Virus record (IMG/VR): IMGVR_UViG_3300037044_000229
Span: 1-30,429 of that record
Length of the DNA: 30,429 nt
Direction: 5' to 3' (one strand)
Origin: a virus
Taxonomy: Duplodnaviria > Caudoviricetes
Shown here: piece after piece, positions 4,318 to 19,970 of the stretch
Layout: every line of letters begins with the position of its first letter
How positions within the stretch are numbered: the first letter of the stretch is position 1
Made by a program: the position numbers and the translations under genes
Notes under the pieces: generated by a model
What the model saw: only the letters and a program-made list of their open reading frames with translations
Told to the model about the DNA's origin: nothing
Database searches by the model: none

Positions 4318-5193
4318 TCACCTCCCCAACAACGCAAACGGAAGGTGCCGACAGTGAAACCCCGCGGCATTGGCATGTCCACCGCCCCCGTGATTCTTGG
4401 CCACCCGGGAAACATCCACATCAGGCTTGTCGGAATACAGCGAAACAACCCAACCGCCGTTCCTCCAACCAAAAGCCAGCATCGCGTCATACCGGTCCTG
4501 ATTCCAGACGGAATCAAACAGTTGGCTATTGGTCGCCATCTTGTTAATGGCAATGCAACGCATTCCGTCCAGTTCCACGGAGAAGGCCGCGGATCTTGCA
4601 TACTTTCCGTTGTCCGTATTGATGTAATTCAGGATATGCCGGCCGGCGCAACAAATGTCCTCAATTCGATCTGCAATACGGTCCCGTATTCTGTCATCCA
4701 AACACAGGAGGGTTTCCCATAACGCTATGGTCTTCGGGTCGGCAGGGTCAGTATCCAAGGCCCTCATGCCATATTGGAAGTGAAGGACAGTGTCGTCTTC
4801 AAGATCAAATACGTCATACCGGCCCAATAGATAGACGGGAGCTGGGGTAAGCACCGGATCCGGGGAAAAATATTCCCAAACCAATTCACAAGCCGCTTTA
4901 CCAATTTCACGAAGCCCCCCTATGTGCCGGCCGCATTTACTGTAATCATCCATGGCCGTCTTGTGATGGTCAATCCAAACCAAATGACCGCAGGTATCCG
5001 CCAATCGTACCATCCGGTCAAAGGGCTGTAGGCTCATATCCACCATGTAGACAATCTCATCGGGACCGATACAGTCCCAGTTAAACGGCCGGTTGTAATC
5101 AGTGCCGATCATTACACATTCCGGATACTTGGCGCGGATAATGGCCCCGGAGCAATGGCCGTCCAGGTCTGCACTATGGTAAAAACATTTCAT
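4318..5193 (-). CDS. DHH/DHHA1 family phosphoesterase (NrnB/oligoribonuclease-like)
   Basis: YHSADLDG, MVD, WIDHH and GGGGHANAAGF motifs; likely start ATG 5193. Confidence 0.88.
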   Translation of the reverse strand: MKCFYHSADLDGHCSGAIIRAKYPECVMIGTDYNRPFNWDCIGPDEIVYMVDMSLQPFDRMVRLADTCGHLVWIDHHKTAMDDYSKCGRHIGGLREIGKAACELVWEYFSPDPVLTPAPVYLLGRYDVFDLEDDTVLHFQYGMRALDTDPADPKTIALWETLLCLDDRIRDRIADRIEDICCAGRHILNYINTDNGKYARSAAFSVELDGMRCIAINKMATNSQLFDSVWNQDRYDAMLAFGWRNGGWVVSLYSDKPDVDVSRVAKNHGGGGHANAAGFHCRHLPFALLGR

Positions 5194-5351
5194 TTTCCAT
5201 GCCCCTGTCTGAATTTCGGTTTCAAATAGTAATGCCATTTCAGTTGAAGGTAATGAAGACATTCCTCCTGGATAGCCCTCCAGTCTTCATCCTTGATCGC
5301 TTGGGCCAGGTCCGCCACCACTTTCAGCACTTCCGGCCTTTCGTTAGCCAC
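5190..5351 (-). CDS. Hypothetical protein (53 aa, GTG start)
   Basis: GGAGG SD before GTG 5351; stop overlaps the DHH start. Confidence 0.5.
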   Translation of the reverse strand: MANERPEVLKVVADLAQAIKDEDWRAIQEECLHYLQLKWHYYLKPKFRQGHGK

Positions 5352-5595
5352 GAGCCTTCCTCCATTTGGCCCAAGCGTCCCATGCACAGGCCCCGGCGTA
5401 GACCACCAACCATCCCAGGCCGGCCAAAGCACCAAGTCCCAGGACAAAGGCCGGAGTTCCCCACATCGGTACGAATACCCACCACCATGACCAGTCAATC
5501 ATCCCGAACAATTTGGCCGCGACGAATATCAATGTCAGCACGGGTAAAAATCCCATGGCCATACCCCCCTGTTTCACAACTATATGATTAGACAT
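5344..5595 (-). CDS. Small phage membrane protein (IDWSWWWVFVPMW motif, Tmemb_185A-like)
   Basis: Two hydrophobic segments with the LTLIF..KL.G.IDWSWWWV.P.W pattern; AAGGAG SD. Confidence 0.75.
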   Translation of the reverse strand: MSNHIVVKQGGMAMGFLPVLTLIFVAAKLFGMIDWSWWWVFVPMWGTPAFVLGLGALAGLGWLVVYAGACAWDAWAKWRKARG

Positions 5596-5614
5596 TTAAA
5601 TCTCCTTGTCTTTG

Positions 5615-7753
5615 TTATTTTTTCGGGGTCTTTACCGGCTTCTTGTTCTCGGTCTTCTTCAACTGGGCTTGTTTCTCCTTGTCCTTCCTCTCAGTCTCAG
5701 CGCGGAAAGCGGTAACACCCACGTTGGCCTTGGCGGTATCAGCCTTGGCTTTTTCCGCTAACATCTTCGTCACGGCATTGGCCGCTTCGATCTTGGTCCG
5801 GGCCACGATCTCCGCTATTTCCGCCTCCAGCTTCTTGTTTTCAAGCAGCTTGCCCATCAAGTCAGCCTGGATCCCCTGCTCTGCATACTGGGCATCCTTC
5901 TGCGCCTGGGCCTGTTGAGCCTCAAGCATTTGAATGGTCCTCTGTTTGATCTCTTCCGGAGACATGTCCTCTTCAGTCGGGTCAATGCCCAATATCGGCT
6001 TGATCTTCGCCAATAACTGATCTTTGTTAGGCATGTCGGACAGTTCAAATGCCAAGTTCATCAGGTGCGGGATAACTTCCGGCGGGGACTTCTTAACCCA
6101 TTCGATGATCATGTTCATGTTCTGTTCACGGACAGTGTCGGCTTTGGCCGCAACCACTACCGTCAGGTCAAAACGGCCCTGGGTGATATTGTTCTTAATC
6201 ATGGTCCGGCCATCAGGTCCGGTCATCTGCTGATTAAGCATCACGAACCTTTCGGCCCCACTCACCCTGTCCGTTACCCGGAGAACCATTTCTTCCTTCC
6301 AGAAGTCCTGAATCCCGCTTACCGTCAATTCACCAAGCATCTGCATAGAACGGCGCAGGTTGCTAAACAACGTGGCCGTCATCAAGGACCCCTGTTCACG
6401 TCTAAGGTCTATGGCGGCGCCGGACACCGCATTGCTCTGAAGCCCCATGCGCTCATTATTCGACCCGGATATTTCCTGGATCTCCCGTTCGCTTTGTTCC
6501 ATCAACTGAACCTGTGCCGGCGCCAAGTCCGCTTGCTCCACGATCTTCAAACCAGTCTGTAACTTCCCAGGCCGCACAATGACCAGGCCATCCAGTTTGT
6601 TGGCCTCTTCCCACAACTCCTGTAACCCGGTATCCGGATCGTCCACGACATCACTCTCAGCAAATACCCGGCGGGACTTGAGCAAGGCCAGGGCCATGGT
6701 CCGTCTCTTGTTCGTCTCTTCATCCTGTCCACGAATCTGACGGGGAACCCCGTAAGGCAGGTTGTATCTGTCGATGTATCCAACGAACGGAACAAACGGG
6801 AAGTTGTTGTGGCCATAAGGGGAATCAATATGCTGCAATTCCAAGTCGCCTACAAATGTCGCCACCCGGATCTTCTTCACAGTCGCGGCCACGATTTCAT
6901 AAGCCTGTTGGACCATTTCAAGCTGATCCATAGCCGGCAGGTTGTCACTCAACTCCAGCACCCTGCCGTCACGGAAACGGCAGAACCAAGACTGTGTCCA
7001 CTGCCCGTACCACATTTCTACTGGCCGGACTCGCTTGTTGGTCCCATCAACCCAGTCCGACCCAATCAGTGTTTGTCTGGACTCTTCAACAATATTGGCC
7101 AGGTCATCATCGGCATAGTCGAAGTGGTGATTGTCTCCATCCAGGTCTTGACAATGGTCATTCAATTCCTTGGCCTTTTTCGGAAACAACGCCTGGAGTT
7201 CATCTATCTGGACCCACTTCTCATGAAAAACATACCGGGACGTGTCCGGGTTTAGCCATGGCCCACCATACGGATCAAAGTGCATCTCCTTCCAGTCCCG
7301 GTAAGCAACCCTGATCTTTTCCCGTCGCGGATCCGGGTTGAGCCCAACAGACAAACACCCGAATCCCGGCACAATGGAATCAGCAAAGCCTTGACCAATC
7401 AGCCACTCACCCATGTTCTGATCCATGACATACTGAATACTCTCTGTCATGATCTGGCTGATCTCCCCGTCCTTCTGTGTCCGGGCCTTGGCTATGATAT
7501 TGTTGCTGTTCATCGACTGTGTTCCGAGAATCAAATTCACCGAAGGGAACGTCCGGTTAATAGTCAACGGGTTCAAGCCGGCCGCTATCGCCTCTTCCCA
7601 ATCCTCATCCGTCCATTGAGCCCGCCCACCGTCGTACATCTGAGCGTCGCGCCAACTTTCCGCCCGCCATTCCGCATCAGCTACACGGGCCTCATAAACC
7701 CATTGGCGCAATCTCGGCAAATCAGGTGTATTGATAAAATTATTCTTCGCCAT
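5615..7753 (-). CDS. Portal protein, P22-like
   Basis: 712 aa after terL; LTINRTFPSVNLILG, FPFVPF, PYGVPRQIRGQDEETNKR, SGAAI motifs; C-terminal coiled coil. Confidence 0.88.
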   Translation of the reverse strand: MAKNNFINTPDLPRLRQWVYEARVADAEWRAESWRDAQMYDGGRAQWTDEDWEEAIAAGLNPLTINRTFPSVNLILGTQSMNSNNIIAKARTQKDGEISQIMTESIQYVMDQNMGEWLIGQGFADSIVPGFGCLSVGLNPDPRREKIRVAYRDWKEMHFDPYGGPWLNPDTSRYVFHEKWVQIDELQALFPKKAKELNDHCQDLDGDNHHFDYADDDLANIVEESRQTLIGSDWVDGTNKRVRPVEMWYGQWTQSWFCRFRDGRVLELSDNLPAMDQLEMVQQAYEIVAATVKKIRVATFVGDLELQHIDSPYGHNNFPFVPFVGYIDRYNLPYGVPRQIRGQDEETNKRRTMALALLKSRRVFAESDVVDDPDTGLQELWEEANKLDGLVIVRPGKLQTGLKIVEQADLAPAQVQLMEQSEREIQEISGSNNERMGLQSNAVSGAAIDLRREQGSLMTATLFSNLRRSMQMLGELTVSGIQDFWKEEMVLRVTDRVSGAERFVMLNQQMTGPDGRTMIKNNITQGRFDLTVVVAAKADTVREQNMNMIIEWVKKSPPEVIPHLMNLAFELSDMPNKDQLLAKIKPILGIDPTEEDMSPEEIKQRTIQMLEAQQAQAQKDAQYAEQGIQADLMGKLLENKKLEAEIAEIVARTKIEAANAVTKMLAEKAKADTAKANVGVTAFRAETERKDKEKQAQLKKTENKKPVKTPKK

Positions 7754-7913
7754 GTTCCCTCCGGACTTTACATAAGCCCCCTTTCATTTCCCGCCGAAGA
7801 CGGCGGTTGTAAGTGTTCTTCCAATATTTCCGGAGCCCGGTGCTCCAGTTGTAGCTATGGCGCCACTTGGTCAAAGCGTCGTATTCGCCGGCGCCTTTCA
7901 ACGGAATCCTCAT
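7740..7913 (-). CDS. Small basic phage protein (GAGEYDALTKWRH...YNRRLRR)
   Basis: ATGA overlap with the terL stop; fills the terL-portal gap. Confidence 0.6.
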   Translation of the reverse strand: MRIPLKGAGEYDALTKWRHSYNWSTGLRKYWKNTYNRRLRREMKGGLCKVRREHGEE

Positions 7914-9253
7914 CTCTTCCTTCCCCATCCGTGGCCGGAAGACTTCTTCTTGCCCCGGTTAGGCCTGAACCCACCACCGCCCTTGTGGAACCTGTGAAGC
8001 AACGCAAACGTCTGGAACGCATCCGCCGGGTGAGAAGTCCAGTCATGAACTGGACGCAATGCAAACACCCCGTCCTTCTCGTTCCATTCCTTCCGGTATT
8101 GCTTGAGCCCCTCGACACCACGTTCACACTTGTCTTCATCAAACCAGCATTTGCCCAGGATCTGACGGCAAGCCTCGATCCCGTCCTCTTTCTTGGCCGG
8201 CTTCGGAGCTATGTCCGCCGAAAACCCCAGGTCATACAAGAAGTCCTGTGCACTTTTCCCAGTCTGAAGCTCACGCTTGGCCCCATCGTGAGGAAGATGA
8301 ACCCGGCCAACCATGGCCCCATTGGAATTAACGAACTTGGTGATCTCGTTGGCGTAGTGAGCCAAAGGCTCTCCGCTGTTTTCGTAGTAATTGACAAAGT
8401 GAACCTCACGGCCCACGTTTTGGGTGAACCAAATAGAAGTCGAATCGTCCATCCCCAAGTCCCACCAGGTATCTACCGGGACACCACCCTCAATCGGCAC
8501 ACCGCAAACCCGGTTCTGAGTATCAGCAGCCTTCATCTGCTTGGAATAATAGGCGCCCGGGATAGAAGCCTCGAAACTGCAATAGAACTCCTGTTGGATC
8601 AGGTCATCATCCATCCCGTCCAACCGTTCTTGCTCTATATCTTCAGGGGTCAACACGCCGGTATCAGCAACGGTCAGCTTTTCGCAAAACCAGGTGGGGT
8701 TCTTTAGGGCCAGTTTATACAGCCGGAAAGCATGGTTCTTGCCGCGGGGCGTAAAGTTGAAAGCCGCCCATCCCCCGTTCTCACGGAGAATCGGCCGGAC
8801 AAAGTCCCATCCGGTAGGATCCTGCAAGGAATACTCGGAGAAGATACAGCCCACCGGGTTAGTCCCGACGATACTGTCAATATTGTCAGAGCCCACCAAC
8901 TGGAACAAAGACCCGTTGGTCAGCTTGATTTTCATCTCAGTACTGTTCGTGTTTTCCCGGATCTGCTCGGGAATATGAGACAGGAAAGGGAACCCGTCCT
9001 TCCCTATCCCGTCCCACACGATCTTTCTGGCCTGTTTCAACGTCGGCAGGAAATAGTAATAGGCGCCAACCCGCTTGGCCCAGGCCATGGTAATCAGAAT
9101 GTTCAACAGCGTCTTGTCTTTCCCGGCCCGCCGGTGCCAGACAGTGGCCGCACGGCGAACGCCGTCCCTGACAATCGCGTTAAACAACGGCACTTGGTAT
9201 GTCCTTGGGATAAACTCGTGAGGTATGGTGATATTTATCGGCTCAACTGCCAT
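7910..9253 (-). CDS. terL: Terminase large subunit
   Basis: PRTYQ, WHRRAGKD Walker A, IFSEY Walker B, FTPRG coupling motif, WDLG and SHPADAF nuclease motifs. Confidence 0.95.
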   Translation of the reverse strand: MAVEPINITIPHEFIPRTYQVPLFNAIVRDGVRRAATVWHRRAGKDKTLLNILITMAWAKRVGAYYYFLPTLKQARKIVWDGIGKDGFPFLSHIPEQIRENTNSTEMKIKLTNGSLFQLVGSDNIDSIVGTNPVGCIFSEYSLQDPTGWDFVRPILRENGGWAAFNFTPRGKNHAFRLYKLALKNPTWFCEKLTVADTGVLTPEDIEQERLDGMDDDLIQQEFYCSFEASIPGAYYSKQMKAADTQNRVCGVPIEGGVPVDTWWDLGMDDSTSIWFTQNVGREVHFVNYYENSGEPLAHYANEITKFVNSNGAMVGRVHLPHDGAKRELQTGKSAQDFLYDLGFSADIAPKPAKKEDGIEACRQILGKCWFDEDKCERGVEGLKQYRKEWNEKDGVFALRPVHDWTSHPADAFQTFALLHRFHKGGGGFRPNRGKKKSSGHGWGRKR

Positions 9254-9339
9254 GTTTCGTTCGTCAAATTCCCTGTAAAACCTAAAAAATTAAAATAAAA
9301 AAAATAGAAGTTTCGCACTCACGGGACTAGTTACATAGT

Positions 9340-9419
9340 GGGGGGAGGCCGGCCCGGCCGTCGGTTGGTGCCCCCCATGGGGGTGGGGGGGGTCATGTGC
9401 AGAAAATGAAAGGGGGGGG
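9340..9419 (+). repeat. Four G-tracts (G6, G5, G8, G8) in the terL-terS intergenic region; candidate packaging/cleavage site
   Basis: G runs at 9340-9345, 9379-9383, 9385-9392, 9412-9419; function is inferred. Confidence 0.45.
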
Positions 9420-9645
9420 TGACCTTGATCTCCATCGAACATGGCCAGAGCGCCACAGAATCAGGGCCAGGGAAAACCTCCACCACAACCGACCGGCATG
9501 GTAGAGCATGTGCGCTTTTAATATTTTGAATAGCGCAGTGTGACCTATGGCCTATGCCCTGCATTATTAATAATGCAGCACTGGCCACCCTCTTATGTAT
9601 TATTAATGTAATGTTTACAATGGCTTGCATTATAATATACCCCAA

Positions 9646-9673
9646 AGTTTACATAACATAGGTTATCGGACAT
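9646..9673 (-). other. XerCD dif-like recombination site ATGTCCGATAA-CCTATG-TTATGTAAACT
   Basis: 11-6-11 architecture with ATAA-N6-TTAT core; right arm 9/11 identical to the E. coli XerD arm TTATGTTAAAT. Confidence 0.75.
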
Positions 9674-10253
9674 TTTTATCTATCTGCTTGTTTTCATTGG
9701 ATATTGGCGTAATCGTGACTGCACTTCCGGCTTGACCGGACGGATCGAATGCCAAAATTGCTGTAATCGTGATGGGGACTTGAGGCGGTGTATCGGCCTT
9801 TTGTTCTCCGAATTGGAGCGGTATCATCTTGCCAAGTCTCCATCTAAGGGAATCCAGGAGCACCTTGGCCGTAGGCGGGTCCGTCCGCCGATTATCAAGA
9901 TCATCCTCAACCTGGGCAATCTTTTCCAAGGCCATCCATGCTTGAGAAACCCGCGCGTGAATGTGGAGCTGTCTCGCTTCTTCGTGTCTCGTCACCATGC
10001 CCCAAAATGAGCCTTCCGAAATTCCCTCTTGTTGACATGCTTTCCTGACAAGCATCCCGGCCGCAATCCTTGAACAGATTTTTTCCACGTCAGTCATGGA
10101 CAATTCGACATTGCCATCTTTATTGGCAACGATAATAGCGGTTGCTATTTCTTTGTCTTTATTTGTTGTTGATTGGCTGGGTTTGTCGGTCTTCACTGAC
10201 TTGATTGGCTCGATTTTACTGGTATCTGTGGATGTCGTTTTCGTTTTGTCCAT
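9663..10253 (-). CDS. terS: Terminase small subunit (Sf6-like)
   Basis: KICSRIAAG..VRKAC HTH and AKVLLDSLRWRLGKM.P..FGE motif; upstream of terL; start uncertain (10253 or 10292). Confidence 0.8.
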   Translation of the reverse strand: MDKTKTTSTDTSKIEPIKSVKTDKPSQSTTNKDKEIATAIIVANKDGNVELSMTDVEKICSRIAAGMLVRKACQQEGISEGSFWGMVTRHEEARQLHIHARVSQAWMALEKIAQVEDDLDNRRTDPPTAKVLLDSLRWRLGKMIPLQFGEQKADTPPQVPITITAILAFDPSGQAGSAVTITPISNENKQIDKNVR

Positions 10254-10399
10254 AGTGACAACAGTGTATCGCGTGGCGCGAATCGTTGCCAAGCGGATTA
10301 TGTGTAATTATGCTTAATTAATGTCATGGTGTTTTAATAATGATTATTATAATTTATGTCGTTTCTTACGTTATGCTGCTTTTATTTGCTTCTATTTTC

Positions 10400-10428
10400 T
10401 TGACAATCGGAAGCTTGTCGGCGATACT
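10400..10428 (+). promoter_or_regulatory. Near-consensus sigma70 promoter TTGACA-N17-GATACT for the plus-strand cassette
   Basis: TTGACA 10400-10405, GATACT 10423-10428, AT-rich upstream region. Confidence 0.8.
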
Positions 10429-10434
10429 GACACT

Positions 10435-10756
10435 GACACCAAGAAAATGCTCTTTCAAAACACAGCGGAAACCGAGTCAGAGGGACCGATAAAATCACCT
10501 TCGGGATAGCCGCAAACGCGAGAAACAACGCGGGAAATCTTGTTAGACGCCGGGTAATACCTTGCGCCAAGGGTAGTTAGGATAAACCTCCCAGTGAAAG
10601 ACTGGGCTTAGTTAGGATTCTCCATTGGTTGGTGCCTGCGATAGTGACTGACAGGCCATACTGAGCTATTCCGGCCCATTGAACGATGGGTTTTCACCAG
10701 CATGACAAGGGACGGGAATGTCCGGAGTCTGCCGATAGGCAGATTGCGAAGATTTT
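10435..10756 (+). ncRNA. Candidate large structured leader RNA/ncRNA of unrecognised family
   Basis: No convincing ORF; several small-loop hairpins (cUUCGg, GGAA, GAUA, GAAAG) and nested long-range helices. Confidence 0.5.
10448..10460 (+). promoter_or_regulatory. boxA-like antitermination element TGCTCTTTCAAAA
   Basis: Close match to rrn boxA TGCTCTTTAACA, about 13 nt after the predicted transcription start. Confidence 0.65.
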
Positions 10757-10791
10757 TGACCCTCAACCAACCAACGGAAAGGAAAACGCAC

Positions 10792-10980
10792 ATGGGACTG
10801 ATGAAAAACTCGTGGAAATTCCTCAGTGAGGACATTGATTTAGCGGAGTTTGTAGCCGGGCTAACCGAGGAACAACGGGCCGAAATCGAAGCAGACTGGG
10901 CCGATATTCAGGCAGAACGCGAAGAATTGGAAGAGCTGGCCAGGGAATTAGACGGTTTGGATTTAGGAGAAGAGGAATAA
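10792..10980 (+). CDS. Small highly acidic protein (62 aa), first gene of the cassette
   Basis: GAAAGGA SD before ATG 10792; 21 D/E versus 5 K/R. Confidence 0.75.
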   Translation: MGLMKNSWKFLSEDIDLAEFVAGLTEEQRAEIEADWADIQAEREELEELARELDGLDLGEEE

Positions 10981-10984
10981 CACC

Positions 10985-11347
10985 ATGGAAACGACAATCA
11001 GGGAATTGGCCGAATTTGCCACACCGCAAGAGGCGACTTCTTGGTTTTACGGGGCTACCATTGATGATTGTCGAGCAATCAACCTTGGCCAAGGTAAAGG
11101 CAGTCCAAATTCTGCCATGCCGGTAATATTAGCGGAAATTGTATTCGGTATTCACAGCATAAAACCCGGAACAATTGATTTTGCTCTGCCAAACTATTGG
11201 TGGGGACCGATACTTGAGCAATCCAATGGTGTGCTCGGGGATAATCCTTTAAGACATTTTGTCTGGACATACGATTGCGAAGAATCCGAGGGGAAGCCGT
11301 ATCCGTTGACGCTGGAAGCGGCGGAATTGCTTTGTAGCCTACAATAG
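10985..11347 (+). CDS. Hypothetical protein
   Basis: GAGGA SD; tightly packed after the previous gene. Confidence 0.7.
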   Translation: METTIRELAEFATPQEATSWFYGATIDDCRAINLGQGKGSPNSAMPVILAEIVFGIHSIKPGTIDFALPNYWWGPILEQSNGVLGDNPLRHFVWTYDCEESEGKPYPLTLEAAELLCSLQ

Positions 11348-11461
11348 GTAGAATCTTAGCTTTGATTATTTCCCGGGCCGATCTTCTCTATGGCCCGGGA
11401 AAACATGAGAGCTAACACTACCAGGTAAAAGGTCCGGACTGCTACTAACAGCCGGACCTTT
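11347..11461 (+). other. Two intergenic RNA hairpins (long interrupted stem 11347-11422; stem 11428-11461)
   Basis: GGTAG/CTACC, TTAGCTTT/AGAGCTAA, TTTCCCGGGCC/GGCCCGGGAAA; AAAGGTCCGG/CCGGACCTTT. Confidence 0.65.
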
Positions 11462-11515
11462 AGCGTTTTGTCCTAACCCCCAACCAACCACGATTAGAAG
11501 AGAAAGGAAAAACAC

Positions 11516-12856
11516 ATGGCCGAAAATACCAGTCCTGCATCCTGGAATCAATGCAAAGTTTTAAAAAGTATTACCCATATTGAGATTGAACCCTGGCAGG
11601 AAACCGGAATCAACGTGTCCCAGGCAGGGGAGATAATCGCCTTGGGATTTAGATACTTCGGAATCAAGCAACAGAAGGACATACAGGTAAAACCCCTGTT
11701 CGAAGACGCGGTAAGAGTCTTCTTCCCGGATTTTGAAGCCCCGGCCAGAACGATATGGCTTGGCGGCGGAAGAAAAAAGAGCAATGGCGGCAATGGCCAG
11801 GAAAAGAAGGAAGAGCAGGAAAAACCCCGGTCCGATCAGGGCCAGGGGGACAAAGACCGGGAAGAACAGCAAACTCCCCCACCCCGTCAAGAGCAAAAAC
11901 AAGAATCCGGGACTGGCCAAGAAGAGCATGACAGCGGTCGGGAAGAAGAAGAGCGGGAAGAAAAGGCCAAGAGGGACCGGGAAAAATTTGAACAGAAAAT
12001 GCGGGAAGATGATGAAAAAGAGCAGGAACGGCGGCGGGAAGAGCAGGCCAGGCAGGATGAAAAAAACCGCCGGGAAGAAGAAGAGCACCAGGAAAAACAG
12101 GATGACTATGTTCCGCCTGAGATTTACCAAGAGTTTCTTGGTTTGGTCAAGATGGGGACGAATGTTCTTTTGACTGGCCCGGCGGGTTGTGGCAAGAGCT
12201 ACATGACCGAAAGGGCGGCGGCGGATCTTGGTTTGGACTACACATGTATCTCTCTGGGCGGCGGCATGAGATATGCCCAGGTTATTGGAAGCAAAGAGAT
12301 TGTGGACGGCAATACCTCTTGGCTCCCTGGCCCACTGATTCAGGCCATACAGCGCCCAGGATTGATTCTGCTTGACGAAATCTTTGGTTGCGACCCTGAC
12401 GTCCTGTTGGGGTTGAACTCTGTTACGGAGCCTTCCAGTCGTCGCATAGTGACTCCAGGCGGAACTTTCCGGGTTGATCCTGGTGTTAGATTTGTGGCGG
12501 CGGCCAATACCACTGGCCGAACTGTTTCCAGGCAATACACCGGGGCGCAAAGGTCAGATGACAGCGTTCTCAGTCGATTCGGCATGACTTTGGTGATGGA
12601 CTATGACCGGAAAGTCGAATTGTCCATACTCCGCAAGATGGGGCTTAATGGCAGTGGGGACAACTTGGTTGATTTAGTGGAAAAACTTCGGGACCGAGTT
12701 AAGATAAACAATATTCCCTTCGATCCTTGCACTCGAAGACTGATTGCGGCCGGCAGAGCGATTGCCGAGGCTGATTTCGCAGTTGGCCGTGCTTTTGAAA
12801 TCGCCTTCCTGAATGTTCTCTCCCCTGCTGAAAGATCGAAAGTGGGGATGCAATGA
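11516..12856 (+). CDS. MoxR/CbbQ/CobS-type AAA+ ATPase with long charged N-terminal linker
   Basis: GPAGCGKS Walker A, LILLDEI Walker B, AAANT sensor 1, VLSRF arginine finger. Confidence 0.88.
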   Translation: MAENTSPASWNQCKVLKSITHIEIEPWQETGINVSQAGEIIALGFRYFGIKQQKDIQVKPLFEDAVRVFFPDFEAPARTIWLGGGRKKSNGGNGQEKKEEQEKPRSDQGQGDKDREEQQTPPPRQEQKQESGTGQEEHDSGREEEEREEKAKRDREKFEQKMREDDEKEQERRREEQARQDEKNRREEEEHQEKQDDYVPPEIYQEFLGLVKMGTNVLLTGPAGCGKSYMTERAAADLGLDYTCISLGGGMRYAQVIGSKEIVDGNTSWLPGPLIQAIQRPGLILLDEIFGCDPDVLLGLNSVTEPSSRRIVTPGGTFRVDPGVRFVAAANTTGRTVSRQYTGAQRSDDSVLSRFGMTLVMDYDRKVELSILRKMGLNGSGDNLVDLVEKLRDRVKINNIPFDPCTRRLIAAGRAIAEADFAVGRAFEIAFLNVLSPAERSKVGMQ

Positions 12857-13611
12857 TAACAGCGCAAGAATACGTCAAGGATAAGCCGATTATCGCCTTC
12901 CTACATGCCTTAGACGTTTTGGATTATTGTTTGAAAGATAATCCCGATAATCCATCTGCCTACAAACATCCCAATGAACCGCAAGACAATGGTCGCCGAA
13001 TCAGGATGAAGAAATTGTTGGAGCAAGAGCGGGAAATCAAAGACGTTGAATTTGGGGACTTGCAAGACAAGATCATGGCACCAAAACCGAAAACGACAAT
13101 CGTCGATTCGGAAACAGGGGAAATAGACGTAGACCGGTATTTGGCAGGGGAGCGACTGTGTTTTGATGAACCGATCAAAATACCCCAAGATGTTTCAAGT
13201 ATGTCCTTGGTGCTCGATATGGCCATATCGTGGCATGAGCGAGAGCTAACAGACATGATTGCCAGGCATCGTGAGACTTACAGACTTGCGCTCCATGCCG
13301 AAAACAACAGGATACCATGCCGGGTAATAGCTGCGGTCGGCCTTAAGATCGCAGAACGACAAGTGCCGATCAGGTTATATTTGGTCATAAAAGATTATGA
13401 TGACCCTATTTTCCCTGGAATATGGGGGGCTTTTGAGACAAACGCGACAACCAATGATTTTCTGAACGTTATTTTAGATTACTTGGTCGGGACCAGGACA
13501 AAAGCCAATGGCCGTATTGTCAATATGACCGTAGACCAGGAAATTGACGACGATACCATCATAATCCTACATGGGGGCGGATGTGTCATAACAAATAAGG
13601 GACCGCAATAG
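12853..13611 (+). CDS. Putative VWA-like partner of the AAA ATPase
   Basis: ATGA-coupled to the ATPase; GEIDVDRYLAGE motif then hydrophobic strand LVLDMAIS (degenerate MIDAS). Confidence 0.55.
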   Translation: MITAQEYVKDKPIIAFLHALDVLDYCLKDNPDNPSAYKHPNEPQDNGRRIRMKKLLEQEREIKDVEFGDLQDKIMAPKPKTTIVDSETGEIDVDRYLAGERLCFDEPIKIPQDVSSMSLVLDMAISWHERELTDMIARHRETYRLALHAENNRIPCRVIAAVGLKIAERQVPIRLYLVIKDYDDPIFPGIWGAFETNATTNDFLNVILDYLVGTRTKANGRIVNMTVDQEIDDDTIIILHGGGCVITNKGPQ

Positions 13612-13628
13612 CGGTTCCTTCACAGGAG

Positions 13629-13658
13629 AGGCCAGGGAGATAACCCCTGGCCTTTTTT
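13629..13658 (+). terminator. Intrinsic terminator
   Basis: AGGCCAGGG/CCCTGGCCT stem ending in a T6 run. Confidence 0.75.
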
Positions 13659-13709
13659 GTGAGGGATTTTCCCCAACCAACCATGAAAAAAACCCGGAGG
13701 AAAAGGAAC

Positions 13710-13886
13710 ATGCCAAGTAATTGGGAAAGACTGGAAGGCGGTTGTGTAGCAGCGGTTTACCAGGGACGGAGATTCGTGGACCGGACCCCAGGCGCAGTCC
13801 TGGAAAGAATTCGAAACACTATTCAGGAAACTGTCAGGCTGGAACAAGCACGGCGCCGGGACCGGCGGGCAAAGAGAGGTTTCTGA
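13710..13886 (+). CDS. Small protein with C-terminal Arg-rich motif (EQARRRDRRAKRGF)
   Basis: GGAGG/AAGGA SD before ATG 13710; stop overlaps next start. Confidence 0.65.
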   Translation: MPSNWERLEGGCVAAVYQGRRFVDRTPGAVLERIRNTIQETVRLEQARRRDRRAKRGF

Positions 13887-14083
13887 TGGACAGTCTATTC
13901 TCTGACGAGGGGCGGTTTATCTTGGCGGTATTCTGTATGGACTGGCACGGCGGCCAATGGAGCCGTGGTTATCGGATTCTATGCAGACTGAAGCCGCGGA
14001 ACTTTTCGTCTGAATTGTGCCAGGAACTACGACAGACCAAACTTTATAAATATCTGGTCAAGAATTATGGGGGGACCGTATGA
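13886..14083 (+). CDS. Hypothetical protein (DWHGGQWS motif)
   Basis: GAGG SD; TGATG overlap with the upstream gene. Confidence 0.7.
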   Translation: MDSLFSDEGRFILAVFCMDWHGGQWSRGYRILCRLKPRNFSSELCQELRQTKLYKYLVKNYGGTV

Positions 14084-14406
14084 AAACTCAACAAGAACAA
14101 GTCAAGTCGGCAACCAGGGCATACATCATGCCGATAAACCGAACGAAAACCCGCTTCCAGGTTTATCTTTGTGACGGGATACATGCGTTGACAAATCTCT
14201 GGCCGAGTGACTCCCGCAGAACGAAACAGAGTAAAGAACTCTTGGCCTGTCAGATTTACAGCACCCACAAGGATTATCCGGCGTTTCATTTCTATTTCAG
14301 GGGAACCGGATACAGCAGAACGCGAGAAATACGGGAAGCCCTGTTGGAAATCAACTCAAACTTGGTGATTTACGAACTTCACCCCGGTCATAACCCTTCC
14401 TTGTAG
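14080..14406 (+). CDS. Hypothetical protein
   Basis: ATGA overlap; GGGGGA SD. Confidence 0.7.
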   Translation: MKTQQEQVKSATRAYIMPINRTKTRFQVYLCDGIHALTNLWPSDSRRTKQSKELLACQIYSTHKDYPAFHFYFRGTGYSRTREIREALLEINSNLVIYELHPGHNPSL

Positions 14407-14582
14407 CCCGCCAACCGGCGGCCGGGTCTTTGGCGAGGCCCGGCCCCTCCCCTCCCCTGGACTGAAAACGGGGAGATGAAGCAGCCCTGCGGACTGAATA
14501 CTAAAAGGCGAAATTTTACTATGGTTATAACACCGAGATTAACTCCGAGTTTTCACCATACCCACACTGAAAGGCGGAAAAA

Positions 14583-14996
14583 ATGAAGATTTATGATAAC
14601 GACGGCGAAATTGTGGCCAAGGTGTATGAGGCCATGGCCAATGAACCCACACAGAATCTTGTCCAGGCTGTTGTCAAACGCGACTGGAAGGCCCTGGTAG
14701 GCCAACTGGATACTGAGGCTCTCATTGCCCTACACATTGAGGCTATTAGCAGACTGGGCAGCCTGTGCGACGCCAATAATAACAAACATTTGGCATGTCC
14801 GAATTGTGGCAATACGGGCAAAGAAACCGCACTGTATATCCGTGGAGAACTATTGCTCGAATACACTGACGGCGAGTTTACTTCTGCCCAAGACGCGGAA
14901 GACGACCTAAACTTTTATGCCGAAAACACCTGTTATTGTCCGGTTTGTGACTTTAGCGGGACCGTCTATGAATTTTTACCGAAGAAAGAGGAATAA
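14583..14996 (+). CDS. Hypothetical protein with C-terminal CxxC...CxxC zinc ribbon
   Basis: CPNC and CPVC pairs; AAGG SD. Confidence 0.75.
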   Translation: MKIYDNDGEIVAKVYEAMANEPTQNLVQAVVKRDWKALVGQLDTEALIALHIEAISRLGSLCDANNNKHLACPNCGNTGKETALYIRGELLLEYTDGEFTSAQDAEDDLNFYAENTCYCPVCDFSGTVYEFLPKKEE

Positions 14997-14998
14997 TC

Positions 14999-15412
14999 AT
15001 GAGAACTTATAAGGATTTATTGGAACAAGCAATTGAATATCTTCAGGAAACACACCAAGACGAAATCCTGAATGAACATTACGGCGATGACCGGGCAACC
15101 TGTACCTACTGCCAACTGATAGACGATGCCAAGAAAGCTCTGGCCGTGGAACCCGATCCGCCAACGGTCATAATCGACATGGACGGTGGTCTGATCCAGT
15201 GGATTGGGGCCGACATGCCCATGAACATTATCGTTGTAGACATGGATATAGACGGTGTGGACGAAAACGAAGTAGAGATTCCCTTTTACGACACACCCGG
15301 CCACTTTGCTGGCGCTGTCTACCAATGGAACGATCACGAATGTATCCCTGACGAGTACAAGGCGCATGTGCTTCAAACCATAGCCGACAGCGAGAAAGAA
15401 GGTGAATCATGA
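14999..15412 (+). CDS. Two-domain acidic hypothetical protein
   Basis: GAGGA SD; halves resemble the next two genes. Confidence 0.75.
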   Translation: MRTYKDLLEQAIEYLQETHQDEILNEHYGDDRATCTYCQLIDDAKKALAVEPDPPTVIIDMDGGLIQWIGADMPMNIIVVDMDIDGVDENEVEIPFYDTPGHFAGAVYQWNDHECIPDEYKAHVLQTIADSEKEGES

Positions 15413-15579
15413 TTATCAACGAAGAAGAACGCTCTATATTGCGAAACGCATTAGAACACTTAAAAGAATTAGACGAAGAAAACCATAACTGGGACCATTC
15501 CGACGATGATGTCTGTCTCGTTTGTGGTGCCATAAAAGAAATGGACGAACTTTTGGACGCTTCGAGGGGTGAGTCATGA
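15409..15579 (+). CDS. Small acidic H...CxxC protein (MIINEEERSIL..., 56 aa)
   Basis: Read by hand; ATGA overlaps at both ends; AAGGTG SD. Confidence 0.7.
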   Translation: MIINEEERSILRNALEHLKELDEENHNWDHSDDDVCLVCGAIKEMDELLDASRGES

Positions 15580-15947
15580 CAAAAACGGAACTTGAGAAGG
15601 TCATAAACAGCGATCATTTTGACCGACTGAAAGTTGGACTTCTGTCTCCTGACCAAATACGAGTTTTACTTGACCAGATTGCCAAACACCCGGATTGCCC
15701 TACTGTGAAGATGTTGGTGTCACTGTGCAATGGTCAGGTTGAAGGAGTTGGAACTACCTTCCCGGTGGAAGTAGGTGTTGTGGACTATGATATAGACCCC
15801 AAGTGCGATAAGCCTGAAGACTTTGATCTACCAGTTTACGATGACGACAATGGCCATTGGATCGGCATTATCCGCGATTACGGTATGCACCCGGACCACA
15901 ACGACGAAGACGCCCAAAAATACTGGGACATGATTGACGGCAAATAA
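15576..15947 (+). CDS. Acidic hypothetical protein
   Basis: ATGA overlap; VVDYDID motif shared with 14999..15412. Confidence 0.75.
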   Translation: MTKTELEKVINSDHFDRLKVGLLSPDQIRVLLDQIAKHPDCPTVKMLVSLCNGQVEGVGTTFPVEVGVVDYDIDPKCDKPEDFDLPVYDDDNGHWIGIIRDYGMHPDHNDEDAQKYWDMIDGK

Positions 15948-15954
15948 CACTAAC

Positions 15955-15981
15955 GGGCCGGTTCCCGGCGGGGACCGGCCC
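15955..15981 (+). other. GC-rich intergenic hairpin
   Basis: GGGCCGGTTCCC/GGGGACCGGCCC; no U-tail. Confidence 0.5.
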
Positions 15982-15994
15982 AACAGGATGGTTT

Positions 15995-16204
15995 ATGCCC
16001 ATGCTTTACGACCCCCGCGATTTACTCCCAGGCCACGAACAATTTGAAAGATATTGGAGCCCGGTGGCCGGGAAAAATATGTGGCAATACGACTATCGTG
16101 ACCCGAAGGGGCATCTTTATAGTTGTGTGGCTTTCAGCCTGGAGATATGCCTGGCCCGGCGGAAAAAATGGCAGGAACTTCTGAAGCAGAATGGGACACC
16201 TTGA
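15995..16204 (+). CDS. DUF3873-like protein
   Basis: QYDYR..G.LYSCVA..LE.C..RR..W pattern recalled for DUF3873. Confidence 0.65.
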   Translation: MPMLYDPRDLLPGHEQFERYWSPVAGKNMWQYDYRDPKGHLYSCVAFSLEICLARRKKWQELLKQNGTP

Positions 16205-16260
16205 CCCCCACTGCTTTACAATGCTATACAACTGAAAGCACTATTCCCGAAGGAGGGGCT

Positions 16261-16446
16261 ATGGCAAAAAAAGATTTTATTAGTATTTCCATGAGGTTCG
16301 ACAAGGAAACGTATGTCAGGTTAAAAAAGATCGCTTTTCTTGAAGACCGGGCGGTGTCAAACCTCATGCACAAGTGGGCCTTGGAGAAGATTGAAGAGTA
16401 TTGTGACCAGATGAAAGAGGGCTGTCCGCCGACTCCAGGCAAATAG
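16261..16446 (+). CDS. Ribbon-helix-helix (Arc/CopG-like) regulator
   Basis: ISISMRFD beta-ribbon, RLKKIA..EDRAVSNL helices; AGGAGG SD before ATG 16261. Confidence 0.8.
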   Translation: MAKKDFISISMRFDKETYVRLKKIAFLEDRAVSNLMHKWALEKIEEYCDQMKEGCPPTPGK

Positions 16447-16474
16447 CGGCTGCATTAATATTAATACTATACTC

Positions 16475-16500
16475 AAAGGCGGGTTCGTCCCGCCTTTTTT
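16475..16500 (+). terminator. Intrinsic terminator
   Basis: GGCGGG/CCCGCC stem followed by a T run. Confidence 0.7.
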
Positions 16501-16513
16501 TATTGGAGGAACC

Positions 16514-16717
16514 ATGTTTACAGACGTGGAAATCAACGCCTTTAGGGCCTGTATTGATGTGGCGGTAATTGTCTTGGACCGTGAGGCCGAGAATCCGGGG
16601 ATTAGACAGCAGTGCCGAGTTCACTTGAAAAACCTATCCCAACGGCTCACCGAAACCTTGGAGTCCGTTGCAGTCTACCAGAAAAAACAGGAAAGGCCAG
16701 TGAACAATGGAGCGTAA
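16514..16717 (+). CDS. Hypothetical protein
   Basis: GGAGGA SD. Confidence 0.7.
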   Translation: MFTDVEINAFRACIDVAVIVLDREAENPGIRQQCRVHLKNLSQRLTETLESVAVYQKKQERPVNNGA

Positions 16718-17171
16718 TGAATCGGACCAAGCCTACAAGGACGGTTACGACCAAGGCTTTCAACATGGTCTTGAAAAGGGCCGCACTGAAAAGCCGAAAA
16801 ACCCGGTGGAACCCACCCCGGTTGATTCCGACGACTGCAACGATGACGGCGGTTCCAAGGCCCTTATAGACTATGACAACCAATTCAGGCATGATCCCGT
16901 GCAGGTGCAGGCTGAATGTGATTGTTGTAGGGAACCGACTGTGGTAGACATGTGTTGGTGGGAATACCATAACGAAAAAGTCAACGATGGTAAGCCCTAT
17001 TGGAAATTAGACGAGTTGGATGAACTGAGCGTCAACGACCGCTGTTGCCCCAGTTGTCTTGATAAGCGGCTGAAAGCCGAGGAGCGAAACCGAGAATTAC
17101 TCTCTGATTCGCCCCCCGCTTGGTTCGATCCGGCAAACGCCGGCGAAAGCTGGCACGAAAACGACTATTAA
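16707..17171 (+). CDS. Hypothetical Cys-rich protein with GYxxG repeats
   Basis: AYKDGYDQGFQHG; CDCC and CCPSC; last plus-strand gene of the cassette. Confidence 0.7.
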   Translation: MERNESDQAYKDGYDQGFQHGLEKGRTEKPKNPVEPTPVDSDDCNDDGGSKALIDYDNQFRHDPVQVQAECDCCREPTVVDMCWWEYHNEKVNDGKPYWKLDELDELSVNDRCCPSCLDKRLKAEERNRELLSDSPPAWFDPANAGESWHENDY

Positions 17172-17217
17172 GTCGTTACTCTCTCAAAAAGTTCCTTATC
17201 AGGAACCCCGCCTACAT

Positions 17218-17268
17218 ATCGGGCGGGAAAGCAGTAATAGCTTTGGCTGACTCGCTTTCCCGCCCGAT
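17218..17268. terminator. 15-bp stem hairpin at the convergence of two transcription units
   Basis: ATCGGGCGGGAAAGC/GCTTTCCCGCCCGAT. Confidence 0.6.
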
Positions 17269-17310
17269 CCTCATTATCAAATATCATCTAAGTTGTTAGA
17301 CGTGAGAGAC

Positions 17311-17817
17311 TTATAGTCCTGGAATTGGCCGGTCATCACCGGTCGGATGAATCCGGGCATATTCCAGGAGAGCCAAACACCCCCATGCGGCATGGGCAAG
17401 ATGATGGAGGCCGCTTTCCGGGTCCAGGTTTTCCCCCGCCCAAAAACTGCACAAATGCCGTTGCACCGCCGCCCACACCCTGGACCATTTCATGCCCTTT
17501 TCCCAGTTGCGGTCAGCGTATTTCCTGGCCCCGTAGTTGTAGACGGCCACGACTTCTTCCAGGGCGCGAATTGGGACCAGGTCAAACCGAAGTTTCCCGT
17601 CATCGTCTTTCCGGCCACCAGCAAATTCACCCGGCCCAATGGATTCAATGGGGATTTCCACCTGGTTGCCGTGCTTGTCAAAAGGAAGAACACCTAAGGC
17701 CAATGCCTTTTCCAGTAGGTGGATCGCCCGGGCATCGTGACAGGCAATGGACGCAATGCTGCTCGCCATGTCCTGCTTCATATTGTTTCGGTGCCAATCG
17801 TCTATAAGTCCCATCAT
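17311..17817 (-). CDS. dATP/dGTP diphosphohydrolase domain protein (DUF5664)
   Basis: GRKDDDGKLRFDLVP, YGARKY..RNWEKG, RHL, DPESGLHHLAHA motifs; start at ATGA overlap. Confidence 0.85.
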   Translation of the reverse strand: MMGLIDDWHRNNMKQDMASSIASIACHDARAIHLLEKALALGVLPFDKHGNQVEIPIESIGPGEFAGGRKDDDGKLRFDLVPIRALEEVVAVYNYGARKYADRNWEKGMKWSRVWAAVQRHLCSFWAGENLDPESGLHHLAHAAWGCLALLEYARIHPTGDDRPIPGL

Positions 17818-18287
17818 CCTTGCCTCCGCATGTAATCTGCTATCCAAAGGGCATCTGCCCGGTTGTGATCCATTTCCCGTCTCAGCAACGTGGTTGACAT
17901 TTCTGGCCACTGCCTACGGGCGGCAATCAGGGATTGTTTTTTCACATCCGGGCTGTCGGTCTTGAACAACACTCCCTTTTTCCACTGGTTCGGCTTTACA
18001 ATTTTAAAGGGAATTTGCAGGGCGGCTAAAATCCCGATCCAGATACCCACGTTCCGACCGAAGATGTAGTGTCCGATTGAACCCCGCATCTTGGGGTTGA
18101 CCGCGCCCAGTTCTTCCAGACCCACCGCAATATGTCCATCTCTGCCGTAAGTCTTCATCCATGCCCCGAGAATCCTGGCCATTTTCGACTCATCTTCAAA
18201 ATCTTCCAAGTGTATGTTCTCGCCATTGGCATTGTTTAATGCCACGGCCCCGGTCTTACCAGGGTCTATCCCTATGTAATAGTTCAC
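17814..18287 (-). CDS. RuvC-like Holliday junction resolvase
   Basis: YIGIDPGKTG, LEE, P.QWKK, HNRADALWIA. Confidence 0.85.
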   Translation of the reverse strand: MNYYIGIDPGKTGAVALNNANGENIHLEDFEDESKMARILGAWMKTYGRDGHIAVGLEELGAVNPKMRGSIGHYIFGRNVGIWIGILAALQIPFKIVKPNQWKKGVLFKTDSPDVKKQSLIAARRQWPEMSTTLLRREMDHNRADALWIADYMRRQG

Positions 18288-18288
18288 G

Positions 18289-18645
18289 TTATGCCTCTAT
18301 ATCCAGGTATTCAATTTTCAGGTTTTCAGGTTTCATCTGATCCTCTACCCGCTTGGACAGTTCGGCCACAATGTTTTCGGTTCCCTGCCCCATGATCTCA
18401 GCGGCTCTCCTTTTCAGCCAGGTCATAAACTTCGATGAATCAACCAGGCGCCGAAAGGCGGCATCCTTATTTTGTTCTCGGGACCGGCTTTCGGTCCCAG
18501 TGGCTTCGGCCCCGGATTCCGGGTGTTTTATCCGGCAACAATTCTGGTGTTTATTCCGGTGCTGGCCCCCGGCCCCGGAACCGGAATACCACTCAAGGAC
18601 AAAGTCCTTTTTTGTGACGCTCAGAATTGGCTCTCGATCTTCCAT
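18289..18645 (-). CDS. Peptide chain release factor-like peptidyl-tRNA hydrolase (stand-alone GGQ domain)
   Basis: SGAGGQHRNK...CRIKHPESG...ESRSREQNKDAAFRRL. Confidence 0.88.
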   Translation of the reverse strand: MEDREPILSVTKKDFVLEWYSGSGAGGQHRNKHQNCCRIKHPESGAEATGTESRSREQNKDAAFRRLVDSSKFMTWLKRRAAEIMGQGTENIVAELSKRVEDQMKPENLKIEYLDIEA

Positions 18646-18664
18646 ACGGCTATGCCCTCTCTTT

Positions 18665-19069
18665 TTAAACCTGGCGACGAATTACCCGACTCAGCGCCGG
18701 AGTTTGGGGCTCAAAATTGGCTACCGTCCCCCCCATGCCCTGTCTCTCGGGATTGGTTCCCAGGCGATAGGGATGCAAGGGGCATCTTTGGTCATGACAA
18801 TTCTTGACGGTGTCGGAGCTTTTACCGCAGCAGTGAAGACACTCGTTCCGAATGGCTTTGACAGACGGTCGGCCCTGGCCCTGGCGGAAGGGATGGAAAA
18901 GACACTGGGATTCTCCGTCAGTTATCCCCTCCCCTCCGCAATTTACGGTTTTCTCATCCCACCCCAGGCACTCGCGGCAAAAATAGACCACGGCCTTCTT
19001 GGGGGTCAGACTCACTTCCTCGATTCCGGTTCTGGTTCTGATTTCCCGAATCAGGCTCATAGTGTTCAC
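18665..19069 (-). CDS. Protein with two tandem Cys-rich zinc-binding repeats
   Basis: A...FCREC...C...CLFHPFRQG and A...ECLHC...C...CPLHPYRLG. Confidence 0.75.
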   Translation of the reverse strand: MNTMSLIREIRTRTGIEEVSLTPKKAVVYFCRECLGWDEKTVNCGGEGITDGESQCLFHPFRQGQGRPSVKAIRNECLHCCGKSSDTVKNCHDQRCPLHPYRLGTNPERQGMGGTVANFEPQTPALSRVIRRQV

Positions 19070-19260
19070 TCTCCCCCCTGGGCGGCCTCGGCCTTGCCGG
19101 CCCAGGGGGGTAGGTCGGCTTGTACCGGTTTCAGTTCCGGTCGATATTTCAGGTGTGCGGTTTCGATTAGGTTGACAATCGCCGGGACAAAAGCATCGTT
19201 GTTGTAAAACAATACTTCTAATTTCGCTTTAATCTTTATCATATCACATGCCAATATCAT
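19066..19260 (-). CDS. Hypothetical protein
   Basis: Overlapping start/stop junctions with both neighbours. Confidence 0.55.
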   Translation of the reverse strand: MILACDMIKIKAKLEVLFYNNDAFVPAIVNLIETAHLKYRPELKPVQADLPPWAGKAEAAQGGE

Positions 19261-19544
19261 TACCTTGCCCCGCCTTGTTTTTTGGAGATGTATTTTTTAC
19301 GTGTCTCCATCCACTCATCCGTTTCAATTTGGACAGGATATTTGACGTACTCAAGACAAACCCATTTACTGGCCATATAACTTCGCACAAAACGCAATTT
19401 GAAACGTGCATCATGTATCTCTGCCAACTTGTCGTTGATCTCGGAAAACATCGTACTTAGTTTCCGGCCGATGGGGTCAATCCGAATGGTGACGATTTCG
19501 TCCGGCTGGTAGGTCCGGTTGACTGACGATCTTTTAATTGCCAT
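19260..19544 (-). CDS. Hypothetical protein (MAIKRSS...)
   Basis: GAGGA SD before ATG 19544. Confidence 0.65.
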   Translation of the reverse strand: MAIKRSSVNRTYQPDEIVTIRIDPIGRKLSTMFSEINDKLAEIHDARFKLRFVRSYMASKWVCLEYVKYPVQIETDEWMETRKKYISKKQGGAR

Positions 19545-19625
19545 AGACGTGTCCTCTCTCTGTGGTTGGTTGGGGGTTGGTAGTTGAGATAGTTGGTGGT
19601 AATAGATATATGTATGTGGGGAGAC

Positions 19626-19935
19626 ATACATATATATATATATATATTATATATATAGAAGGTTTTTGCCGGGAACGATAAGTAGTTGATATTGCGCCAT
19701 AAAACGTTCCCGGCCGGAAAAACGTTCCCGGGAACGTTTTTTAAATAGTATTTGATATTATTGACAAATCCGGAAACGTTCCCGGGAACGTTTTGGGAAT
19801 CCACTTTATAAGTAAACCACCAAATATTGGTTAACTTGCTGGTGTTGTTGGTTTTTTCAGCTTTGACTCCAAAAACGTTCCCAAAACGTTCCCGGCCTGA
19901 TATTATTGACAATTTCGGAAACGTTCCCGGCCCGT
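19626..19935. repeat. Putative replication origin: (TA)n tract plus AACGTTCCC iterons and palindromes
   Basis: Six plus-strand and two minus-strand AACGTTCCC copies; palindromes 19718-19741 and 19774-19793; 33-bp direct repeat 19753/19898; directly downstream of primase-helicase. Confidence 0.75.
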
Positions 19936-19970
19936 TTTGGGCCTTTTTACTTTTCATGGTCAACATGTTT

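Follow-up and report, generated by a model that had tools for sequence, protein, structure and literature searches.

A conserved non-coding leader stands at the head of an accessory operon in a tailed-phage provirus, and it is a real, undescribed and narrowly distributed RNA element. It was found in the window, by which we mean the whole stretch of 30,429 nucleotides of viral DNA that was analysed. The evidence supports a conserved part formed by a weakly folded, motif-repeating core of about 180 nt, behind which lies a stable stem whose sequence is not conserved. We think that the leader acts in cis, loading host Nus factors for read-through of the 6.7-kb cassette behind it, and we give this reading a probability of about 0.5. 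Both its position and its boxA favour antitermination over a stand-alone RNA. The initial annotation had pointed to a non-coding RNA element behind a boxA, and such an element is borne out: it is conserved in a related phage (L002), has a genuine-looking boxA and lies outside the described Rfam families. The sequence strings quoted in that annotation were all found where it had put them.

Genomic setting, promoter and boxA

The provirus record comprises 30.4 kb and is about 60% complete, and the full-length matches to the stretch are groundwater metagenomes, two of them being possible sources. Family searches of the window gave a P22-like portal, capsid, terminase, replication genes, a repressor, an excisionase and an integrase. 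We infer that the host probably belongs to the Desulfobacterota, because the integrase and one cassette protein have their named relatives in Deltaproteobacteria, Desulfobacterales and Desulfobacteraceae. To our knowledge, Nus biology has been little examined in this lineage of anaerobes. The window also encodes a release-factor-like RF-1 domain protein with a GGQ motif (18289–18645, minus strand; PHROG 3122).

The leader lies between the minus-strand gene of the terminase small subunit, terS (9663–10253; Pfam PF20901 with E 6e-15, PHROG 1482), which is divergent from it, and the plus-strand cassette at 10792–17171. In L002, terS occupies the same position relative to the leader. About 50 bp upstream of terS, both phages have a GTAATT-N5/6-TAATT motif (window 10300–10325, L002 5003–5025), a candidate late-promoter or activator site.

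Transcription of the leader is predicted to start near 10435, from a sigma70-type promoter (TTGACA-17-GATACT) at 10400–10428 on the plus strand. This promoter had been described as strong, and it is indeed the best site in the scanned region, the sole one scoring 10/12 among 20 sites found in 5000–20000. The L002 promoter is TTGACA-17-TATCCT at 5123.

The boxA at 10448–10460 (plus strand), a predicted NusB-NusE site of the rRNA type, was scored with a host-type matrix built from 16S loci in a sample of 61 Desulfobacterota genomes. Out of 30 such loci, the 28 with a 5′ end were used (L194–L221) and the two with only a 3′ part were dropped; the consensus of the matrix is that of the Desulfobacterota, whereas the phage host itself is assigned from relatives only. 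All 28 rRNA leaders contain a boxA, with scores of 10.5–23.1 bits. The site of the window, already noticed in the initial annotation, falls inside this range with 18.4 bits and ranks first among 60,834 positions. Its distance from TTGACA (48 nt) is also host-like, as it measures 38–62 nt in 25 of the 28 rRNA leaders. The boxA-like site of L002, at 5164 and in the same place, scores 8.0 bits (rank 3 of 26,622), which is below the host range; a natural boxA in the spacer of one of the Desulfobacterota loci (L204) differs from it by a single letter. In the rRNA leaders the boxA is extended, and 20 of the 28 have a conserved RATAG 3 nt behind it. Directly after the boxA of the window this host-type RATAG is absent and ACACAGC stands there.

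A conserved core with repeated RWUAG motifs

L002 was found through the AAA protein of the cassette, and it yielded one homologous leader in the same place. The gene order is that of the window: terS, promoter, boxA-like site, a 310-nt leader, AAA gene, partner, 58-aa ORF, acidic ORFs, Arc-like gene and terminator; the first cassette gene differs between the two phages. Behind the boxA, positions 10461–10553 are identical to L002 in 68 of 92 aligned columns (74%), which can be compared with 37% at the four-fold degenerate sites of six shared genes (121/326) and with 66% identity for the TerL gene. A small ORF in the core was considered and rejected, since stops occur in all window frames except one on the minus strand, no similar protein is preserved in the L002 counterparts of that open frame, and the substitutions between the phages are spread over all codon phases. 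Closer relatives, P0003 (84%) and P0004 (61%), exist.

Both leaders carry five RWUAG motifs spaced 29–41 nt apart, which had been overlooked in the initial annotation. They start at 10505, 10542, 10576, 10611 and 10640 in the window, and at 5235, 5271, 5312, 5345 and 5380 in L002. This chain of five is the sole chain of at least four in either sequence, on both strands; one chain of five was found in 1.5 Mb of control strands, and when each leader was shuffled 5,000 times, five motifs were never reached.

The core folds into small domains that bear the repeats. Domain 1 (10465–10513, plus strand) is formed by the helices 10465–68/10510–13, 10472–75/10501–04 and 10481–83/10498–500, with an internal loop in which AAA lies opposite the GAUAG of repeat 1 (10505–09). 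It is the minimum-energy fold of the window piece and of the L002 core when each is folded alone, and its three variable pairs are all compensatory with respect to L002. It is followed, at 10517–10552, by a CGCG hairpin (10517–32) and by a GGGAAAUC-NN-GWUAGAC module conserved in the alignment, which holds repeat 2; here the single variable pair is compensatory. Domain 2 (10574–10627) is a bulged hairpin bearing repeats 3 and 4. Its pairs were picked by hand from pairing probabilities, and 13 of 13 are kept in L002, with one two-sided and three one-sided changes. Repeat 5 (GAUAG, 10640–10644) stands in a hairpin loop and has its L002 counterpart at 5380.

Homologous leaders with covariation had been called for in the initial annotation. 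This has been answered in part: one homolog exists and, among the 19 pairs within 10461–10553, 15 are invariant, the four variable ones are changed on both sides and none is broken, while slid controls were 31–49% paired and showed no two-sided change. The covariation is nevertheless not significant, as 37 of 500 shuffles equal it with two full sequences and a structure derived from those same sequences. Two fragments of closer relatives, X4 and X5, each cover part of the leader at low depth; X4 has eight substitutions in it, five of which fit the predicted fold and three break pairs, one of them in repeat 4.

Folding energies tell the core from the stem. Compared with shuffles, the whole leader has a z of −2.1 because its 3′ half is very stable (−5.0), whereas the conserved 5′ core, at −0.3, folds no better than shuffled sequence. 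The 3′ half of the L002 leader is also strongly folded (z −3.8), without common sequence with that of the window, where the branched stem spans 10621–10778. Better-than-random folding thus holds for the 3′ half and for the leader as a whole but not for the core. One large nested fold of 320 nt is not supported. The four long-range pairings proposed in the initial annotation join complementary strings, but the pairs sampled from each had a probability of 0.0, and none is among the helices shared with L002 in a comparison covering 10448–10644. The local hairpins proposed at the same time fared unequally. Those at 10517–10532 (P 0.69, with the compensatory change in L002), 10590–10606 (0.84), 10634–10656 (0.99), 10675–10690 (0.94) and 10726–10745 (1.0) are predicted with confidence. 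Those at 10558–10575 (0.006) and 10710–10723 (0.0) are not, and neither is the cUUCGg tetraloop at 10499–10504 (0.0), the UUCG of which pairs instead with 10472–10475 and the loop of which is not kept in L002.

The conserved motifs might also be read as DNA sites that serve the divergent terS promoter or a packaging start and are bound by a late activator, a repressor or the terminase small subunit, in agreement with a location of the block 210–390 bp upstream of terS in both phages. We consider this highly improbable, as the compensatory and G-U pairs are specific to the plus strand, the spacing of the repeats keeps no constant helical phase and the motifs are absent from all 79 of the other TerL loci inspected.

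The repeats resemble the RATAG that follows boxA in the host rRNA leaders, and NusA is a candidate partner. Repeats 2 and 3 match AAR-N4-RWUAG in both phages, with N4 variable, as do 19 of the 28 host leaders, and repeat 1 faces AAR across its internal loop; this rule is post hoc, and two of five repeats is marginal against a background of 434/5,690 (p about 0.05). With a 14-nt matrix of the host post-boxA sequence, repeat 2 ranks 7 of 26,620 in L002 and 368 of 60,832 in the window, so that mimicry of the full 14-nt motif is rejected for the latter. For NusA of M. tuberculosis, KH1 binds AGAA and KH2 binds CUCAAUA (PMC1635273, Table 1), and the AUA is critical (PMC2724277); three of the five window repeats are GUUAG and thus lack AUA. 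The link between the RWUAG repeats and NusA, drawn from motif likeness, is a lead and not a result.

Proposed read-through of the cassette and competing explanations

In the mechanism that we propose for the Nus-loading leader, host sigma70 polymerase would start at the promoter described above, and NusB-NusE would bind boxA and build an elongation complex of the rRNA type. The folded core would present its RWUAG copies of the host post-boxA motif and hold the KH domains of NusA off terminator hairpins, thereby replacing a protein of the lambda N type. In the rrn complex NusA is moved from the exit tunnel and Rho is blocked (PMC13753749), and in lambda N is required for intrinsic terminators (10.1101/091223). 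The holding of NusA by the core is the weakest step of the mechanism. RNase III cleaves the lambda N leader and, by analogy with this case and with T7, we infer that the 3′ stem is a site of RNase III-like processing or a spacer, which would free the first gene from a translational block by the boxA loop. Such a loop can repress the translation of the next gene, even a distant one (10.1101/091223), and this would explain the long cleavable stem before the first gene.

A bolder version, which we regard as rather doubtful, is a protein-free phage antiterminator working as a multivalent NusA trap. Through NusB-NusE, the boxA would tie the RNA to the polymerase; the host post-boxA motif, in up to five copies placed about 35 nt apart on hairpins, would hold NusA off terminators or, once the RNA is cut free, drain NusA from the host rRNA operons. 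The leader of an unrelated phage (L228, see below) may be a distant version of it.

The first gene starts at 10792, about 330 nt downstream of the boxA as had been annotated, and ends at 10980 on the plus strand; it encodes an acidic protein of 62 aa without family, and the X5 fragment shows four third-position synonymous changes in it. A CAACCAACC motif and the Shine-Dalgarno region precede it (10764–10791, plus strand). The same motif precedes purine-rich, ribosome-site-like stretches at five other places of the window, 11481 and 13674 on the plus strand and 19572, 26218 and 27652 on the minus strand. A CAACCAACC-type motif is also present in L002 at 5975 and 8178. Considered together, these motifs stand some 20–30 nt before ribosome-site-like stretches, on both strands, and they are probably a phage-wide translation enhancer.

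The cassette encodes a CobS-like AAA ATPase and its partner, many small acidic proteins without family and an Arc-like regulator (window 16202–16446, L002 9655–9910). The AAA ATPase and the partner, a family-less protein of 250 aa (41 relatives), span 11516–13611. For the small proteins of the cassette, no role emerged from searches with Atlas, PADLOC and NCBIfam. The Arc-like gene has a promoter-like site upstream, seen by eye in the window and scoring 9/12 in L002, and no internal promoter above 8/12 was found in the scan of the window cassette.

Terminators at about 13629 and 16475 had been proposed as those to be read through, and terminator-like hairpins were found at 13630 and 16478, plus another at 11425, all on the plus strand. 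The one at 11425–11473 has −22 kcal/mol and a TTTTGTCC tail. That at 13630–13660 has U6 and can be extended to a 22-bp stem (13616–13666), and that at 16478–16502, with U7, follows the Arc-like gene. Only this last one has a clear counterpart in L002 (9931–9954), a result that makes reading through intrinsic terminators less necessary; upstream of the Arc-like gene of L002, as far as the leader, no clear U-tract terminator was seen. A long-stem hairpin with perfect arms of 15 bp (17218–17268) marks the junction of the cassette with the converging left operon. Long GC-rich stems occur in every intergenic gap examined (11356–11415, 13616–13666, 14420–14450, 15955–15982 and 17218–17268), and likewise in L002; they may be processing sites.

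The leader might instead be a platform bound by a phage protein for autoregulation of the cassette (N/nut-like or as an attenuator switch), with the repeats as the sites of that protein. The candidate is a basic protein of 58 aa with an Arg-rich C-terminus that is kept in both cassettes (window 13710–13886, L002 8214–8393). The lambda nutL site speaks for it, as some 200 bp separate it from N and the spacer is structured (10.1101/091223), and so do two alternative pairings of 10621–10627 of the window, one in domain 2 and the other in the 3′ stem. However, no homologs or family were found for the 58-aa protein, and its Arg-rich tail is only loosely kept; the two phages do not have the same first gene; in L002 the alternative pairing fails to reach the ribosome site; and there is no conserved boxB-like hairpin beside boxA. 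No match to N, Q or NusG-like families was obtained among the ORFs scanned; since the record covers about 60% of the provirus, the missing part may encode a phage antitermination protein. On balance we find the platform improbable.

The Nus-loading leader that we prefer is most like an rRNA leader or lambda nutL in its working, while it is not nut, put, conAn or any Rfam family. With the rRNA leader (boxA; NusB-NusE, NusA, NusG, SuhB) it shares a TTGACA promoter, a boxA of the Desulfobacterota type at the same distance and the RAUAG motif, but no rRNA follows, as it heads a protein-coding phage cassette, and the host RAUAG 3 nt after boxA is replaced by five copies downstream on hairpins. The lambda nutL/N leader has likewise an early promoter, a boxA, a long structured leader, a first gene and downstream terminators (PMC2724277, 10.1101/091223). 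Here, in contrast, there is no boxB hairpin by boxA, where L002 has a 13-nt insertion, no N-family protein was detected, and the core has about 180 nt with repeats. HK022 put is also a promoter-proximal structured RNA that heads an early phage operon, and no phage factor is evident in either case, but put is a double hairpin of about 65 nt that binds polymerase directly (PMC8632103), whereas the present element is three times longer, with boxA first; its size, a multi-domain core of about 180 nt, sets it apart. The conAn2/EAR elements are long cis-acting RNAs at the start of operons with internal terminators, and conAn2 regions measure 260–600 bp (PMC8191782). On the Gram-positive plasmids that carry it, conAn2 is located behind its partner gene conAn1, unlike our leader, which has a promoter and divergent terS upstream; boxA occurs 0 times in the main text of that paper (PMC8191782). 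Only three RNA-based antiterminators, put, EAR and conAn2, are counted in the same 2021 paper (PMC8191782). If our reading is true, a boxA-anchored RNA with repeated copies of a host motif adds a further design, and it becomes testable whether RNA alone can neutralise NusA.

CsrB/Rsm-type sponges repeat short motifs on small hairpins, and a similar build can be recognised in the five short motifs on separate small hairpins and in the weak overall folding of the core. The 5′ core might be the payload itself: a small RNA, released by cleavage at the 3′ stem, that acts in trans and offers several decoy sites to a host RNA-binding protein or a UAG-recognising nuclease (NusA or a defence factor), with boxA only protecting and folding the RNA. 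A cassette rich in small acidic family-less proteins fits this idea, and so do the hammerhead that ends the leader of L228 and, among 20 other phage loci tested, the three in which boxA precedes tRNA clusters; as boxA also heads such clusters, it does not by itself separate a leader from a payload. Against the decoy, neither phage has a terminator right after the core, the GGA required by CsrA is not kept at the repeats, and searches with Rfam models in 10300–11000 gave no hammerhead or other ribozyme in the window leader. The sponges of the CsrB/RsmZ type differ as well in having GGA and not RWUAG, and the element here has no terminator of its own. We regard the decoy as possible but not likely; the phage-protein platform and the DNA sites are less likely than it. 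If the leader is a decoy RNA instead, its motif would give a clue to a new host target. Three more specific roles were unsupported: a CsrA sponge, since GGA occurs at repeats 2–4 in one phage each; an anti-Shine-Dalgarno RNA, since the CCUCC stretches are paired in the folds common to both phages; and type III antitoxin-like repeats, the units being too dissimilar from one another for that family.

Distribution of the element and other boxA-led loci

The full examples of the leader are two, in the window and in L002. That the element lies outside described Rfam families, as had been suspected, is confirmed by the lack of matches at or above the gathering threshold in the window (best E 0.97 in 10300–11000). 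A blastn search of the leader against annotated phages and plasmids gave no match, nor did the L002 leader against four runs. Pattern scans of viral sequences gave 0 matches and then 1 real match in 5, 1 in 2, 1 in 30 and 1 in 102 (100 of the 102 loci were inspected), every real one being the L002 contig, as was the single real match of 69 in a metagenome scan. The scans led by the AAA and partner proteins found only L002, and in the TerL-led scan, where 80 loci were kept out of 147, L002 alone had the leader; TerL itself gave one distant match in 401 genomes. RNA models run over genomes gave one weak match in 151 (E 0.03), which failed confirmation, and 0 in 83. No published description of the element was found, and the motif lists in the supplements of RNA-discovery papers could hold it.

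The protein-led scan of GTDB found a Desulfobacteraceae contig (L121) without the leader, in which the AAA and partner genes (6554–8738) are divergent, while they are tandem in the window. The same contig has at 325–2106 a reverse-transcriptase/maturase-like ORF with a YADD motif and an HNH-like end, as judged by eye.

The 102 viral loci came from a scan for a promoter plus boxA, and many of them are chance matches. Among 20 loci chosen by eye, four had tRNA matches, in three of them just downstream of boxA; in these (L230, L252 and L292) the promoter and boxA head phage tRNA clusters. The unrelated, complete 45-kb phage L228 has on its minus strand (2050–2555) a TTGACA/GATACT promoter, a boxA and a GC-rich leader of 447 nt with six GCGAG repeats, which gave no match to the RNA models of the window/L002 element. 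It contains a CGGGAAATC-NN-G-NN-AG module, the sole match in 2.6 Mb of strands beyond the copies of the window and L002, and a type II hammerhead (41.6 bits) ends the leader just before the first gene.
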